A stretch of DNA of 63,044 nt, the filler included, from the NCBI GenBank assembly GCA_964501035.1. It is 22 parts of 22 records of this genome, joined end to end, with 100 filler letters (N's around TTAATTAATTAA, not from the genome) between each part and the next. Parts side by side here need not be neighbours in the genome. Positions count along the whole stretch, not along the records: positions 22,558 to 25,493 come from CAZCRK010000110.1; 21 more parts are not named here. One strand, given 5' to 3'. The translations under genes were made by a program, and so were the position numbers. Shown in pieces: positions 22,383 to 28,489 of the stretch. The notes under the pieces were generated by a model. It was not told where the DNA came from. It saw only the letters and a list, made by a program, of their open reading frames with translations, and made no database searches. How positions within the stretch are numbered: position 1 is the stretch's first letter; each line of letters begins with the position of its first letter.

Positions 22383-22560
22383 ATAGTTAAAATATATCAG
22401 GGAAATTGATATCAAATAGTGATGGCAATTTATCTTCAAAATTTAGGCCAAAGACCANNNNNNNNNNNNNNNNNNNNNNNNNNNNNNNNNNNNNNNNNNN
22501 NTTAATTAATTAANNNNNNNNNNNNNNNNNNNNNNNNNNNNNNNNNNNNNNNNNNNNGAC

Positions 22561-22584
22561 ATATTATATATATATATATATATA
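22561..22584. repeat. (TA)n microsatellite
   Basis: ATATTATATATATATATATATATA read directly. Confidence 0.85.
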
Positions 22585-22751
22585 ATTTTCTCTTTTACAT
22601 ACGAGTATATATTTTATGTATAAATTTCTTTTACTCCCGTAAACTAAATCTTAAATCAAAAATGATTTAAACCTTCACTCACATATATTCAGCGCGACAT
22701 GATAATACGCCGGCAGAGTCTTTAACCTCTAGTATTCAAAGTGATGAGATA

Positions 22752-25430
22752 ATGCAGCTTACAAAACCATTTCAATGGCAAGGGCGCTCAGCTTCACCAT
22801 TGGATGGTGTATCGCCATCGTTGCAAAGTAGTTCTTCTCATCGGGGTGCTAGTAATACTAGGAGGCGCAAAAATTATATGGAAAGACATCATCAGGAAGT
22901 GGAAACGTTGATCAAAGAATTCATGAGAGTCGCTTTAGTTTTAAATTTATTTCAAGGATCTCTAGAGAATCCGGTAGATGAACGGTATATCGGACCGGGT
23001 TGTAAGCTACCTATTTTGAGACATAAAATGCAAAGATTATTTAATCGAAAAATGATGGATACAATAGTCCAATTTGATATATATCGCATGTTGAGTACAG
23101 GGATCGCGGCAGATAGCTCAACAGTAAACCCATCAGAGGTTTATCGCTATTGGGATGAGGGGATATATGATCCGGCGAATAGGGACATACCGCTAATTCT
23201 AAGGGATCGTATAACACCAATGGATAAAGATCGTTTGAAAGAGATGGTGTCGAGATTTGGTACAGGGATGTCGGGAAAGGTTTTAACTACGTTGCCGTCG
23301 CGCCCGTACTCATATTCACAGACTTTAACTTTGGATTTGTATGCATATAGTATGAAATTTAGTAATCGATTGTTAGGATACATATGCATGCCTGGTGCGC
23401 CAAATATGGCATCTGTAAATGGTGCGGGTACTACGATATGTCCATTCTGTTCAAACAATAATAACATGAAAGGAGGTTTACATGCGGTTACATGTAAGAA
23501 ATTGGGACGTCATACAAAATGTCACAGTACAGTAGAAGATGCAGTGCTTCTAATGATACGGGATGCTTTAGCAATTCCGGTGGTGCAAGGGAAGGCGGCG
23601 GTGGTTTTAGCTGATGAGAAAAGAAAAGAAGCGAGGAATAATTTAAATATTACTATCCCGATTACACCATATGTCCACGATGGCGGGGGAAATGCCAATA
23701 TAAATTTGAATACATTTGGGGATATTTTGGTGGTACAAAATGCATCGCTTCCAAAACATTTATTTCCTACAAATGAAGATATGCAGTTCGCAGAGAATGC
23801 CTATACGCAAAGATACACGGATGTGCACGCTTTATGGAATGAGCAGCTTAATTTATTCCTTCAACACATGACATCGTCTGGCAATGGAGCATCCTATTTT
23901 TTCGTTGATGTGCATGTGTCAGCTGGTTCAATAAATTCGGTGAAGGCAGCAGCAACAACAAAGCATAGTAACTATAATAGGGCATGGTCTAGGTTTTGTA
24001 GGAATAAACAGCCTGATGACGCCACATTACTACGGTACAGACAGATAAATCACTCAACTAAGGGTCAACCGGAAGTGGTTACATTTGGTGTAAATTATGA
24101 TGGGGCGTTTGATGATAATGCTATACAGCTCATGGCCCGTTTAGCAGAAATAAAATATCCCACAAACCCTAACAATCGTAGTTATAGAGTTTCTCGTCAA
24201 ACATGGATTGATCATTACGTTCGTCAGATACAGCTTGCAGTGGCAAATGGGGCAGCACCAGCGATTTCACTTGCCATTCGAAATATTAAATCTCAACTGG
24301 TGACTTCATCTATGGAGAGATCTGGAAGTTTGGATAAGGGAATACCGGCGTTTTGTAGAGAAGGAAATCAATATCGGGAGTTACATGAGGACAAGGTCGC
24401 TTACGCATCTCTAAATAAAAGGGGTGAAACACAGTTGGAGGCAACACCGCCTTTTAATGATGAGGCAGGTTTAGACGATCCAAAAGATGACAGGACACAC
24501 ATCACGAATGAATCAATTTCCACTACATGGGTAAAATCAAAAACAAATACAAATACCGATGTAATAATTGACAACTTTCAGGATGGGATACAGTCTATAA
24601 TGAAACAAGATATGACAGTAATGGATGAAACGAGTGACCCTGTTTCGCGTGAAAAGGATTGTTTAGGGGAATTGAAAAAAAAAGATGGTTTGAAGGAATT
24701 GATGTCGGTCGTTGCAGGTGAGAATGCTACTGATGATGAAGATAATGTAGTTCTTACAACGATCGATCCAATAAGGGTGGATGAGAGACATAGAACCGTT
24801 TACGATGAACCATCATCATTTGATATGTATCCTATGAGTACGCAACAGAATGGGGATGAAATGACTGAAGATACAAGTAGTACGCAAGAGAATGGGGATG
24901 AAATGATTGAAGATACAAATGTCAATAATAGGAATAATGTGGTTCTCCGAGCAGCTCCTTCTATAATGATGGATGAAAAGGAAGAAAGCGATTATAGTGA
25001 GCCACCATCAATTGAGATATACCCTACAAATACTCAGGATTTTAGGGATGAAATGAGTGGTGCTAAACGAGTCGTACAGTTAACGAAGGACTATGTAACA
25101 GGCAATGAAACTTTTGAAAAGGGAAGTATAGGGACGGTTATTGAGGAAACTCCACGTAAGGATAGGAAACTGAAAATTAAGTTGGATAAGGATACCAAAA
25201 AAAAATACAGATTGATAAGGGAAACAGATCTACAAGCTTATACATTTAAGAATGAAAAAGAAGTGGTTTGTCTAAATGAACCCAAACTGCAGAAGAATTG
25301 TCAATCAACAGATCTACAAGCTTATACATTTAAGAATGAAAAAGAAGTGGTTTGTCGAAATGAACCCAAACTGCAGAAGAATTGTCAATCTAATTCACCA
25401 ACTTCGGACGACGAATCTATTGAATATTAA
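22752..25430 (+). CDS. Protein with CCHC Zn-knuckle and restriction-like endonuclease (RLE) motifs of CRE/R2-type retroelements, plus an acidic repetitive tail
   Basis: CPFC-x10-HAVTC, CHSTV (RH-like), FGDIL, FVDVHV, KHSNY, TFGVNYDGAF, IQLAVANGAA in the canonical RLE order; no RT motifs seen. Confidence 0.55.
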   Translation: MQLTKPFQWQGRSASPLDGVSPSLQSSSSHRGASNTRRRKNYMERHHQEVETLIKEFMRVALVLNLFQGSLENPVDERYIGPGCKLPILRHKMQRLFNRKMMDTIVQFDIYRMLSTGIAADSSTVNPSEVYRYWDEGIYDPANRDIPLILRDRITPMDKDRLKEMVSRFGTGMSGKVLTTLPSRPYSYSQTLTLDLYAYSMKFSNRLLGYICMPGAPNMASVNGAGTTICPFCSNNNNMKGGLHAVTCKKLGRHTKCHSTVEDAVLLMIRDALAIPVVQGKAAVVLADEKRKEARNNLNITIPITPYVHDGGGNANINLNTFGDILVVQNASLPKHLFPTNEDMQFAENAYTQRYTDVHALWNEQLNLFLQHMTSSGNGASYFFVDVHVSAGSINSVKAAATTKHSNYNRAWSRFCRNKQPDDATLLRYRQINHSTKGQPEVVTFGVNYDGAFDDNAIQLMARLAEIKYPTNPNNRSYRVSRQTWIDHYVRQIQLAVANGAAPAISLAIRNIKSQLVTSSMERSGSLDKGIPAFCREGNQYRELHEDKVAYASLNKRGETQLEATPPFNDEAGLDDPKDDRTHITNESISTTWVKSKTNTNTDVIIDNFQDGIQSIMKQDMTVMDETSDPVSREKDCLGELKKKDGLKELMSVVAGENATDDEDNVVLTTIDPIRVDERHRTVYDEPSSFDMYPMSTQQNGDEMTEDTSSTQENGDEMIEDTNVNNRNNVVLRAAPSIMMDEKEESDYSEPPSIEIYPTNTQDFRDEMSGAKRVVQLTKDYVTGNETFEKGSIGTVIEETPRKDRKLKIKLDKDTKKKYRLIRETDLQAYTFKNEKEVVCLNEPKLQKNCQSTDLQAYTFKNEKEVVCRNEPKLQKNCQSNSPTSDDESIEY
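24837..24918 (+). repeat. In-frame 42-bp tandem duplication (STQxNGDEMxEDT x2)
   Basis: AGTACGCAACAGAATGGGGATGAAATGACTGAAGATACA / AGTACGCAAGAGAATGGGGATGAAATGATTGAAGATACA. Confidence 0.85.
25223..25390 (+). repeat. In-frame 84-bp tandem duplication (28 aa x2)
   Basis: 25223-25306 and 25307-25390 differ at one base (TDLQAYTFKNEKEVVC[L/R]NEPKLQKNCQS). Confidence 0.95.
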
Positions 25431-25593
25431 GTAATATAATAATATATATATTAATGAGCCTTTAAATCATTTATGATTTTGGATTTAATTTACNNNNNNN
25501 NNNNNNNNNNNNNNNNNNNNNNNNNNNNNNNNNNNNNTTAATTAATTAANNNNNNNNNNNNNNNNNNNNNNNNNNNNNNNNNNNNNNNNNNNN

Positions 25594-28489
25594 TTAATGG
25601 AGGACCTACCAAGTGCCATCCTGCTGAGTATGATTTTGTGATAGTATGAGATGCCATTGTGAAAGGATCATCACTTACATCATCATGGTGTTGGCTATTT
25701 TCACCATTATAATCGCCTACATCATGTACTCTCACAGCAACTTTTGCGTTATAGTTAATCTCTGTTCCAGTATTATCACTGATCAAGAAACTTTCAGTTG
25801 AATTTCCTGAAGCATCATCACCACTATCATGAAATCCAGTAAATGAATCTACTTTATTACCCTCTGGGCAAACGGAAGCTTGACATTCATCAGCGTGGTT
25901 CGCATTATCAGTTGCATCTTCACATGAATTAGTTTCTAAACAAGATTGATCTCCATCTCTTAAATAGAAAACTTCTATATGAGAAATATATTGTTTGGCA
26001 GTTGTTGAAAATTCAACATTGTATAGATCGTTAATTGAACGAATTTCAACACCATTTGGAGTTAGAACTGTAATTTGAGGTCTATCATGCGTTGTAGTAG
26101 AGGTATGGCTACTTGCAGATTCCTCTATTAGATCATTACTATTAAATGCGATTGCTTCATATTCATAAAGTGTCTCGGCATCTAATGATTCATCAATATA
26201 TTCATGGCTATCTGACCCTGCTGAACTTGGATCCATAAACGTTGCAAGCAATGAATCACGAGTAGTATTCCATAACTCAATCTTATAAGTATTATAATCA
26301 GGACCATCATATACCTCACCGTAACAGTCATCATACAAGTAGTCATCCAATCTATTATCCTCAACACTTAACATTGCATATTTTAAATCTGTTGAATCAA
26401 CTACTACAGTAGCAGGAACTGCACCAGGTTCTTCAAGAATGATGAATGTTGTGCTGGAACTATCATATTCTCCGTATGGATCAGTTACGGTAAATGTAAA
26501 GGTATGAGTACCAACACTAAGGTCAGCGCTTGCATCTACCCAGCCACTTGGGTCTTCTCCATAAACATGAGCATAACTTGAATTAAATACAGATAAGTCA
26601 ATATTATCATCACCTGAATAAGTCCATTCAAAGGTTAAATCATCATTATCTTTGTCATCAGCACCTAGATTATCACATGCAGATGTTACTTGTACATCCC
26701 GCAAATCTTCACCATAGCGTACATAATAAGCATCACCATTAGTAGGTTGCAGTCGATGATCATCTGTAGTTGGGCCTTCATTTCGTTCTGGACGTACTGC
26801 AACAATCGTGCTAGTTGTATCGGAATCACCATAGACATCTGTTACAACCATTGTTAGAATTATAACAGAATCATCTCCGCCACCATACATAGAAATATGT
26901 GCATCTCTACCATTATAGTTGTATGCACCACAATTACCAGTCCAATTCCCAAGATCATCTTCACAGTCTGTCAGTTGAGAAAGTCCAGTAGCGGGGTCAA
27001 CAGAAGTAGCATATATACCATCTTCACAATTAGAACATGTTACTAATTCATCAAGTGAATTTAATGGAATTGTAGCACCACCATAAGCCATATAATCACC
27101 CAAATCTATATCTTCATATACTAAAGCTTCATTGCCCAATAATGAAAATGGTTCTCCATAATTGTATTCACCATCTCCATTTAAGTCTTCATAATCAAAA
27201 CCAATATCAGTAGCAATTGTACCAAACCATTGATAAGTCTGGTGGTCACACGAGTCACCATCACTAGAATCACAAGCACCATCATCATCATATGACATAT
27301 CAGCAGAGAACCATAGGTCTGCTGCATTTTCACTTCCCATATTATCATGAGGCGCATACCATACTTGATCACCACTTGGCTCAATACCCTCATCAGGATT
27401 CCCAGGATGACCATCATAATCATTAAAATCGGAATCATCATAATCATTACTGTTTACAACTGATAATCCATCACCTGAACGGATTAATCCAAGAGCAGAT
27501 GATGCAACTGGATCTGCATTTGGTTCTTCATCAATTGTTACAGTAATTTCATCTGTATCGCTATGCAAATGCAATTCAGATTCCCAAGAGCCACAAGTAT
27601 TGTAGTTATTTGGATCTAATAAATTATCGCTACCGTCAGAATCTATCTTTACAGGATGGCTGGTATCTACATATAATTCCCAAGTATAGGATACAGGTCC
27701 ATTTTCATGAGGATTTGCGACAGTAAATGATACTGTATTAGTTTCGATTCCACTTACATCATCTATAACTCCTGCACCTCCAGCCCCATTATCAGACTCT
27801 ACCAAAGTCCATAAATAGTTGTCAATGCTGTCTGGATAATCATCATCATCAGATGCTGTGCCATTAGCACTGATGTGTATCACATTTGCATCAGGATTAA
27901 AGTTATGAGGTATTCTATATAGTCCACCTTCATTTGTAGCTAAATCATAATCATCGTCATCACACTCATTATTAGATAGAATTACATAAGGATCATCATT
28001 TAAGCCTGTTGTCGCAGAGGTGCGTGAATCACGTCCTTCATAAAATGTTTCAGCACCACCACTCATCCTAACAGTATGGCCATATGAGGATTCACCAGCA
28101 TGATTTGAACCTGTAACTGTATAAAAATACGTTGATTCCTGTAAAAGACCTTCTTCAGGATAAGCCTCATAGATATCTGCACTATCAATATAATCAGATT
28201 CTGTTTGTCCACTATTACCAGTTAAAAGACCACCGCATCCGATAGGACCATCTCCAGGAGCATATACTCCTGCATTACCGTCTCGATCTTCTGGCTGATC
28301 ATCTCTATACACGTTATAGGAAGTAGCAGGATAACGATTACCAATATCACTAAGATCAGTTCCATCTTCATCCCAGTTAAGAGAAATCGAGCTATAATGA
28401 CCAGTTGAAGTTAAATTATCTGGTGCTTGAGGAACAATATTTCCAATAAATACTGAAAAGTTCTGTTGACCAGATCCACCCATATAAAA
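25594..28489 (-). CDS. Giant acidic surface protein fragment with FN3/PKD/Ig-like domains (partial at both ends)
   Basis: APDNL..SISLNW..YNVYR..YFYTVTGSNHAGES FN3; LTFEW..HTFTFTVTDPYG PKD; EDLNGDGEYNYGEPF; GWHLVGPP. Confidence 0.75.

Follow-up and report, generated by a model that had tools for sequence, protein, structure and literature searches.

The contig under study is one of a chain of 2.2–3.2 kb contigs, with N/TTAATTAATTAA spacers between them, that make up the window, that is, the whole 63,044-nt stretch of DNA analysed, which was taken from a bacterial MAG (GCA_964501035.1). It carries a single ORF between two inverted repeat arms, with a (TA)n tract on its left side. The features, in positions of the window, are listed below, those of the two copies being interpretations argued for further on.

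22558-25493, contig under study, 2936 nt
22565..22586, no strand, (TA)11 microsatellite, read directly, presumed insertion target
22587..22688, minus strand, copy A, probably an extremely 5'-truncated, 3'UTR-only fragment, whose inner 50 nt (22639-22688) are the left arm
22689..25430, plus strand, copy B, probably the 5'-truncated coding part of a non-LTR retrotransposon of the restriction-like endonuclease (RLE) type without reverse transcriptase (RT), corresponding to the relative P0001 from aa 1087 onward
23439..23495, plus strand, gag-knuckle-like CCHC motif (C230, C233, H244, C248; CX2CX10HX3C)
23526..24278, plus strand, RLE domain, ORF aa about 259-509
25071..25238, plus strand, conserved beta-barrel of SH3 type, ORF aa 774-829, C-terminal to the endonuclease in a long extension
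25223..25390, plus strand, unit of 84 nt (28 codons) duplicated in tandem, 83/84 identical
25431..25493, plus strand, copy B 3'UTR, incomplete at the contig end, its last 50 nt (25444-25493) being the right arm

Repeat arms and open reading frame

The sequence-only reading had described an element bounded by terminal inverted repeats (TIRs), and its account of the ends is accurate as far as it goes. The two 33-nt arms match at 29 of 33 positions, each contains an internal palindrome of the TTAAATCA-N4-TGATTTAA type, the right arm runs into the contig end (its last base is the last base of the contig, 25493) and the (TA)n tract outside the left arm is a (TA)11 run at 22565-22586. The repeat is longer than was noted, extending over 50 nt (22639-22688 versus 25444-25493, with 40/50 matching). 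Its local score of 30 was equalled by none of 2000 dinucleotide shuffles, in which each non-coding end was shuffled on its own (mean 12.1, maximum 24), which excludes a chance repeat in AT-rich sequence, named at the outset as a possible refutation. Owing to the palindrome inside each arm, about 19 of the 50 nt match in direct orientation too, and the inverted orientation is set by the outer 12 nt (11/12) together with the inner part. A perfect palindrome made by the assembler was ruled out, the arms being only 80% identical. The 33-nt arm pattern had no match in prokaryote genome representatives or in IMG/VR, an Rfam search returned nothing, and the 3'UTR hairpin is no more stable than shuffles (z -0.03 and -0.48).

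The single ORF of 892 aa (22752-25430) begins with an ATG at 22752 and ends with a stop at 25428-25430, and its frame stays open upstream as far as 22671, within the left arm. That the contig lacks an RT is borne out by Pfam, which found no family above threshold (only sub-threshold DUF772 and DUF7656, the best being DUF772 with E 0.068), while a PDB sequence search with the ORF gave one chance match (E 2.2). The order previously proposed for the motifs, CCHC, GD, D and K, is the one found. The CCHC knuckle, which is of variant spacing and lies just before the endonuclease, falls in a region covered by 4-9 aligned sequences, where the structural model is of low confidence. In the endonuclease, catalysis is putatively assigned to D324 (23721-23723), D386 (23907-23909) and K404 (23961-23963), with Y408 at K+4, and these residues are conserved in 14/17, 22/25, 23/25 and, for the tyrosine, 24/26 of the aligned sequences.

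A profile of the endonuclease region searched against PDB sequences gave one chance match (E 0.31) and no R2, and it is structure that identifies the domain. The AF2 model has a pLDDT of 88-97 over most of the span and of 62-71 at three loops, and its top four Foldseek matches are R2 proteins (probability 0.85-0.98, E 0.02-0.12). VIA-align superimposed it on seven R2 entries with Z 10.4-11.0 over 198-211 aligned residues (e.g. R2Bm residues 895-1107), the next-best fold being the influenza PA nuclease (Z 6.7). Together with the conserved D324/D386/K404/Y408, these R2 matches confirm that the ORF carries a retrotransposon-type CCHC and RLE module. Further downstream, the SH3-like barrel (pLDDT 70-90, mostly 87-90) is matched by SH3 domains in Foldseek (probability 1.0, E about 0.01, target TM about 0.7) and is conserved in 34 fragments. 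The number of 84-nt units varies among relatives, with one in P0022 and P0040 and two in P0015 and P0024.

Relatives, truncation and host

The key to the contig is a relative, P0001 (1503 aa), which is 91% identical (377/416, over its aa 1088-1503) to the contig's frame from residue 8, and which has upstream in the same ORF an RVT_1 domain (aa 396-614, E 1e-11; score 45.4 bits, cut-off 29.6). The only two PDB sequence matches of this RT are both R2 proteins (E 5e-6 and 6.4e-6), and the Protein Atlas gave generic eukaryotic RT clusters only. P0001 is open at its N-terminus, Pfam had no match on aa 1-395, and no zinc-finger/Myb motif was seen in this N-terminally incomplete protein; at the other end, its 1503 aa stop where the contig's ORF has about 480 aa left. 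The match begins at contig position 132 (22689), one base past the left arm. Among the contigs listed from four other metagenome runs, those of three depart from the contig immediately before 22695-22699 and carry the ORF on upstream into P0001-like coding sequence; by eye, the translation of the departing stretch reads NTETRNTNDS, matching P0001 aa 1079-1088. In two of the four runs (X1 and X2, among the contigs listed) the left arm has other surroundings, so the TIR does not hold up as a shared boundary. An ordinary retrotransposon with an upstream RT, the outcome that the sequence-only reading had said would overturn it, is thus what the relatives reveal.

Relatives are truncated at many places. 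The contig and 10 of 11 related loci give eleven different 5' start points on P0001 (aa 548, 640, 910, 1088, 1107, 1233, 1241, 1287, 1324, 1347 and 1440), L010 being unmatched by the query and the starts of L002, L006 and L007 being contig ends with no junction visible. The protein library holds 165 fragments of the family, mostly short. A tract of at least three TA units is found at 7/9 5' junctions, either up to 40 nt upstream or up to 12 nt downstream, against a background of 7.9%, by criteria chosen after seeing the data; a strict rule of at least four units, likewise post hoc, is passed by 3/9, and L004 and L008 have no tract at the 5' junction. Consistent with this, YIY/IYI, the translation of (TA)n, appears in 12/70 fragment overhangs, and an additional copy truncated at 24902 has (TA)n before it. 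At the other end, 9 instances of the ATGAGTAAGA box were counted in 69.6 kb, where about 0.3 would be expected; they mark a true 3'UTR (L006), solo ends next to a (TA)n or (CA)n tract, and mini-copies in tandem. Variants of the 3'UTR are numerous in other runs, including hybrid arms at the opposite-strand joint 22650/25482. Variable 5' truncation, a common 3' end and the absence of LTRs are therefore all present in this family. Depth in metagenome runs climbs toward the contig 3' end, a trend that carries no weight here because contig depths cannot rank the parts of the stretch.

As for the host, the contig had been judged foreign to its bacterial bin, and this is upheld by its occurrence as one copy in the bin and by relatives lying beside eukaryotic genes (flanking genes encode HECT, with E 5e-95, DUF4455, LRR and Fz). 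Words of the contig were detected in 20 runs, which belong to 13 studies and are nearly all marine or seawater metagenomes. Locus scans based on protein, which used a few exact peptide patterns, found no relatives in prokaryote genomes or, with P0001, in IMG/VR, and this speaks weakly against a viral or bacterial home. The best reading is that the contig comes from the nuclear genome of a marine eukaryote and is a contaminant in a bacterial MAG.

Two probable truncated copies and the rival explanations

We consider it probable (about 0.7) that the contig holds a pair of 5'-truncated copies from a single R2-like family of non-LTR retrotransposons, a label given with R2 chains in the PDB as the only reference elements compared, lying head-to-head in (TA)n in mis-binned marine eukaryote DNA. 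Copy B (22689-25493, plus strand) would start about 1086 codons into a full-length ORF, having lost the RT and kept the knuckle, the endonuclease, the SH3-like C-terminal domain and the 3'UTR. Copy A (22587-22688, minus strand) would be the final ~100 nt of a 3'UTR, as the 40/50 inverted match to 3'UTR 25444-25493 suggests, with its 3' terminus against (TA)11, which directly adjoins it, and its truncated 5' end against the ATATAT that precedes copy B. In other copies, as read by eye from loose ends at 22609-22619, its outer flank contains the ATGAGTAAGA box in reverse complement. Compared with 3'UTRs of the distant families, the outer left flank (80 nt) does not score above shuffles (72-432 of 500 equal it), and a likeness of the flank to the 3'UTRs or upstream flanks of L006, L010, L001 and L011 was dropped, by-eye alignments being no better than dinucleotide shuffles, and the short ATGAGTAAGA box took its place in the argument.

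How such a pair might arise can be pictured from R2-type elements, from which we carry over target-primed reverse transcription by analogy. The endonuclease would nick the target, presumably (TA)n, and the RT would copy the element RNA from its 3' end, an early stop leaving a 5'-truncated copy. Since the two strands of (TA)n read alike, an element could enter either way round, and a TIR would be imitated by a pair of oppositely oriented insertions within a single tract, which copies A and B appear to be as separate events. On this view, what looked like a terminal inverted repeat is most probably the 3' end of another copy that entered this (TA)n repeat in the opposite orientation. The 20% divergence of the arms calls for two source subfamilies or for age, yet the ORF of copy B is intact, and since none of the 32 pieces listed from four other runs bridges 22688/22689, this junction is known from the present assembly only.

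The same geometry (3' termini outward, TA at the joint, (TA)11 at the outer left) would fit a single event, in which the palindromic (TA)n was nicked on both strands and reverse transcription of element RNA was primed from each nick; the cDNA of the top strand would have aborted after ~100 nt and been joined to the other at ATATAT, leaving outward-facing 3'UTRs. By eye, the X1 contig tracks the left arm to 22686 and shows ~10 nt further on a forward 3'UTR-like stretch, which would make a second inverted pair. Arms that are only 80% identical are, however, hard to reconcile with one event when the ORF of copy B is intact, and in the related family of the JACKZZ record, where two direct tandems and several solo ends are seen, 0/9 ATGAGTAAGA boxes have an oppositely oriented box a few hundred bases away or less, so inverted pairing is not systematic there; we regard a single event as unlikely. 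An assembly chimera, in which a reversed multi-copy 3'UTR repeat was joined to a truncated or partial copy in an arrangement that exists in no genome, strikes us as quite improbable. The many variants of the multi-copy 3'UTR, the unbridged junction and the upstream read-through of the ORF in three of four runs (the latter two among the contigs listed) are what it would predict, but the joint shares ATATAT only, far below an assembly k-mer, junctions of (TA)n followed by a truncated copy recur in independent loci and fragments, and a bridge missing among the contigs listed is little proof.

The original proposal, of a retrotransposon endonuclease taken over by a TIR-bounded DNA element, a linear replicon or a giant-virus gene that moves with no RT, draws on a genuine, non-random inverted repeat and on an intact 892-aa ORF with its own ATG. 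It is nevertheless not supported, given the RT of P0001, the read-through in three of four runs (contigs listed) and the varied truncation: near relatives have this sequence fused with an RT, other copies read across the supposed left boundary, the left arm is found without the ORF, no transposase family is above threshold and relatives sit among eukaryotic nuclear genes. We deem it very improbable. Hardly any weight can be given to a domesticated, RT-less host endonuclease gene expressed from the ATG at 22752, for which 892 codons without a stop and small word shares in RNA runs (0.05-0.14) might be invoked; this is one among many variably truncated, polymorphic copies, its flanks are 3'UTR debris and microsatellite instead of gene context, and an open frame is expected in a young truncated insertion anyway.

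Known elements and implications

As published, RLE-bearing non-LTR elements have one long ORF encoding an RT, a linker, a CCHC knuckle and a variant PD-(D/E)XK endonuclease (PMC5678591, PMC4640811), with the knuckle spaced CX2-3CX7-8HX4C just before the endonuclease (PMC5678591) and a catalytic K far downstream, followed by a Y at +4 in a KX2KY motif (PMC5678591, PMC4640811). The R2, CRE, R4-Dong, NeSL-Utopia and HERO clades have in common with the present family a single RT-linker-CCHC-RLE ORF, no LTRs, 5' truncation and, as it appears here, repetitive targets, and the KX2KY motif has a counterpart in the KHRKY of the relative P0002. Compared with R2 and the other RLE clades, the family differs in (i) a much larger ORF, (ii) ~700 aa between RT and knuckle, (iii) a knuckle of the CX2CX10HX3C type in place of CX2-3CX7-8HX4C, (iv) ~380 aa after the endonuclease, with an SH3-like domain, which is absent from the R2 structures matched, and a conserved S-[FI]-E-Y end, and (v) an apparent target of (TA)n.

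Simple repeats as targets have precedents. Dong inserts at (TAA)n. Togen families are (TG)n-specific and some HERO families are microsatellite-specific as well (PMC4640811), and these elements likewise bear an RLE and have copies in simple repeats, just as tandem and solo 3' ends accumulate at a simple repeat here. The difference from Togen and HERO is that (TA)n is its own reverse complement, so that TIR-imitating head-to-head pairs can arise; we found no description of such pairs at (TA)n in a literature search that was not exhaustive. TIR DNA transposons and DIRS-like elements share with the contig an inverted repeat around a coding region, but here Pfam finds neither a transposase nor a tyrosine recombinase family, the left arm fails to recur as an element boundary among the contigs listed from other runs, and relatives are arranged in direct tandem instead of inverted. 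A bolder view is that these copies belong to an undescribed RLE non-LTR lineage of abundant marine protists, with a ~2000-aa ORF, an SH3-like domain, (TA)n specificity, regular TIR-like head-to-head pairs and possibly double-strand priming, which as a whole we find doubtful.

The main value of this analysis is a correction, that is, the contig represents eukaryotic contamination of a bacterial MAG and not an RT-less TIR-bounded element, the appearance of which is an artefact of 5' truncation and two opposite insertions. It carries two warnings, that retrotransposons aimed at a palindromic microsatellite can mimic TIRs and that the shortness of metagenome contigs can conceal an RT. Of secondary interest is the family itself, met mostly in marine or seawater metagenomes, whose ORF is of unusual length and whose C-terminal part includes an SH3-like domain; it would, if its (TA)n specificity is true, add a symmetric target to the site-specific R2-like elements that are studied for programmable insertion.

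A contig with an inverted repeat and one long ORF

The window consists of contigs of 2.2-3.2 kb with N/TTAATTAATTAA spacers between them. As these spacers (25494-25593 and every other contig joint) are artificial, features touching one are concatenation artefacts; the ORF listing crosses them, e.g. with a 981-aa ORF at 25538-28483 ending X...LIN. The element studied here lies on one contig, whose last base is also the final base of the right arm of its inverted repeat:

22558-25493, the element's contig, 2936 nt, one whole contig
22752-25430, plus strand, ORF of 892 codons, with a frame open upstream to 22671, within the left arm

The inverted repeat is real. The 33-nt arms described in the sequence-only reading match at 29/33 positions, as claimed, and the repeat extends further, to 50 nt (22639-22688 versus 25444-25493, 40/50). 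When both non-coding contig ends were dinucleotide-shuffled, each separately, the observed local score, 30, was not reached in any of 2000 shuffles, whose scores averaged 12.1 and peaked at 24. The palindrome reported inside each arm is present and spans ~19 nt, so this stretch matches in direct orientation too; it is the outermost 12 nt (11/12) and the arms' inner portion that fix the inverted orientation. The (TA)n tract outside the left arm was likewise found, as (TA)11 at 22565-22586. The contig also holds a 42-nt repeat (24837-24918) and a tandem duplication (25223-25390) of an 84-nt, 28-codon unit (83/84 identical), which is polymorphic among copies, being single in P0022 and P0040 and double in P0015 and P0024.

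An R2-like endonuclease and RT-bearing relatives

A Pfam search of the ORF gave no family above threshold, neither reverse transcriptase (RT) nor transposase. A sequence profile of the endonuclease region found no R2 chain in the PDB, so the link to R2, a non-LTR retrotransposon with a restriction-like endonuclease (RLE), is structural. ORF aa 190-600 were modelled with AlphaFold (38 aligned sequences; pLDDT 88-97 across most of aa 259-509, with three loops dipping to 62-71), and the best four Foldseek matches of this model in the PDB were R2 proteins (probability 0.85-0.98, E 0.02-0.12). On re-alignment with VIA-align, seven R2 entries scored Z 10.4-11.0 over 198-211 residues, e.g. Bombyx R2 residues 895-1107 (knuckle and endonuclease), above influenza PA endonuclease (6.7) and Prp8 (6.5). 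Together with conservation among relatives of D324 (14/17), D386 (22/25), K404 (23/25) and Y408 (24/26), the predicted fold bears out the earlier RLE assignment. K404 and Y408 are spaced like the K...Y of KX2KY, a motif described as the hallmark of LINE endonucleases in the part of PMC5678591 consulted, and the relative P0002 has KHRKY at this site. The CCHC motif noted earlier is there as well (C230-X2-C233-X10-H244-X3-C248), with a spacing near the canonical one but not identical to it.

As for the RT, none is present in the contig, as the sequence-only reading had stated, but a close relative has one. P0001, a library protein of 1503 aa open at both ends and one of eight near-length homologues, is 91% identical to the window frame (377/416) from frame residue 8 to its own end, and has an RVT_1 domain (aa 396-614, E 1e-11) in the same ORF, upstream of the shared part; such an upstream RT is the finding that the sequence-only reading had itself set against an RT-less element. 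The only two matches of P0001 in a PDB sequence search were R2 proteins (E 5e-6 and 6.4e-6). In the bin, P0001 found a single contig, 22558-25493, which it matches from P0001 aa 1087 onwards, starting at contig position 132 or window 22689, one base beyond the left arm on its inner side. The missing RT in the window copy is an effect of truncation, and we put at roughly 0.9 the probability that the contig carries a eukaryotic RLE retrotransposon, of an RT-bearing kind, in a 5'-truncated copy.

The relatives behave as a non-LTR retrotransposon. Nearly all of the 165 proteins that an exhaustive protein-library search gave at E<=0.001 are short pieces encoded on short contigs, and a metagenome/WGS scan gave eleven related loci. 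With P0001 as query, the window and ten loci (L010 had no match) start at aa 548, 640, 910, 1088 (window), 1107, 1233, 1241, 1287, 1324, 1347 and 1440, the start points of L002, L006 and L007 being contig ends and not junctions in view. Neither a full-length copy nor a 5' end, a 3' junction or a target-site duplication turned up in this material. At the larger loci, eukaryotic genes adjoin the element (HECT, E 5e-95; DUF4455; LRR; Fz), and words of the contig were matched in public data, namely in 20 runs that belong to 13 studies and are, with few exceptions, marine or seawater metagenomes. Scans of prokaryote genome representatives and IMG/VR found no relatives, which is weak evidence since these scans were pattern-limited. 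In P0003, a EukProt gene model of 627 aa, a pyridine-nucleotide oxidoreductase (PF07992 in precomputed Pfam data) is joined with parts of the retrotransposon ORF; the model is probably a chimera that gene prediction made by spanning an insertion.

The ORF of this family is very long, with ~700 aa from RT to knuckle in P0001 and ~380 aa beyond the endonuclease in the window ORF, including a predicted domain:

25071-25238 (ORF aa 774-829), SH3-like beta-barrel, ~55 aa, conserved, ~265 aa past the endonuclease

The barrel model (pLDDT 70-90, mostly 87-90) matched SH3 domains in Foldseek (probability 1.0, E ~0.01, target TM ~0.7) and lies beyond the point where the matched R2 proteins stop; it may serve in targeting or in binding nucleic acid. 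The family's C-terminus is conserved as S-[FI]-E-Y, and a looser form of it, S-[FIY]-[EV]-Y (window 25416-25427; P0002, P0004, P0006, P0008), persists even between families whose remaining tails do not align.

(TA)n junctions and the origin of the inverted repeat

Nine 5' junctions were taken, from eight loci and the window (L002, L006 and L007 were excluded because their contigs begin inside the element; that of L005 was set by eye, at the start of the block common to L005 and L004). By criteria both picked after the data were seen, (TA)>=3 lies up to 40 nt upstream or up to 12 nt downstream of 7/9 junctions versus 7.9% of same-size windows of the same loci, and (TA)>=4 at 3/9 versus 2.2%; the L004 and L008 junctions have no (TA)n tract. 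Two independent observations agree with this: (i) 70 library fragments overhang N-terminally by 6 aa or more, and 12 of these (e.g. P0146, P0152, P0080) have YIY/IYI, i.e. translated (TA)n, in the last 25 overhang residues, and (ii) a contig from metagenome run X5 holds another copy, truncated at 24902, immediately after (TA)n. Most RLE elements are repeat-specific, microsatellites included, according to the part of PMC4640811 consulted. A narrow literature search found neither this element family nor a (TA)n-specific RLE element.

From left to right the contig would comprise (TA)11, copy A, ATATAT and copy B:

22587-22688, minus strand, copy A, proposed solo 3'UTR of ~100 nt
to contig end, plus strand, copy B, proposed 5'-truncated element, from about codon 1086 of the full ORF onwards and including the 3'UTR

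Because (TA)n is self-reverse-complementary, an endonuclease and RT using it as target could insert either way, and two opposite insertions would leave outward-facing 3'UTRs resembling terminal inverted repeats (TIRs). The copies would have arisen by target-primed reverse transcription, by analogy with R2, and the 20% divergence of the arms would fit two source subfamilies. We lean, somewhat beyond even odds, towards two separate insertions as the source of the inverted repeat.

Alternatives are a true TIR element, a domesticated gene, a single event priming on both strands and an assembly chimera. Logan contigs of four metagenome runs, from four different studies, were aligned to the contig, several of their loose ends being read by eye. 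In three of the four (X2, X4, X5) contigs follow the ORF and diverge just upstream of 22695-22699, the X5 sequence there encoding NTETRNTNDS (P0001 aa 1079-1088, by eye) and those of X4 and X2 close variants. In two of the four (X1, X2) contigs with the left arm depart at 22669, 22671 or 22686 into other sequence, while X1 and X5 hold hybrids of both arm variants (opposite-strand joint 22650/25482). As the ORF crosses the supposed boundary and the arm occurs in other contexts and variants, the left arm is no fixed element boundary, which speaks against a true TIR element and, with the RT of P0001, makes the RT-less, TIR-bounded element first proposed unlikely. The arm hybrids and other contexts make the arm sequence a multi-copy unit with many variants. 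Among the 32 matches listed (of 107) in the four runs, no piece bridges 22688/22689, a junction taken from this assembly.

A 3'-end box and solo insertions

A left flank made of reversed 3'UTR fits the reverse complement of a 10-mer box, ATGAGTAAGA, which in the window's own family was read by eye in loose ends of X1, X2 and X5 at 22609-22619, just outside the left arm. When the outer left flank was aligned directly with 3'UTRs of distant families, the result was no better than shuffles, so we place no weight on it. Elsewhere, P0024, P0096, P0152 and P0064 have lost the stop codon and their called ORFs continue into 3'UTR sequence; the downstream peptide ...SDPLNRL is common to P0152 and P0064, two copies that hence agree in their 3' flank or UTR end. 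In the related family of the eukaryotic JACKZZ genome record, the box occurs 9 times in 69.6 kb (~0.3 expected, both strands):

L006, 131 nt past the stop codon, true 3'UTR
L010, 14 nt ahead of the next copy's 5' junction
L001 9941-9975 and L011 8364-8398, tandem mini-copies of ~25 nt
L001:958, L001:5933, L005:9101 (minus) and L011:3086 (minus), solo ends by (TA)n or (CA)n

The mini-copies and solo ends resemble insertions that aborted again and again at microsatellites of a eukaryotic genome record, and these settings of the box show that "solo 3'UTR" insertions, i.e. extreme truncations, and repeat pile-ups are normal for such elements.
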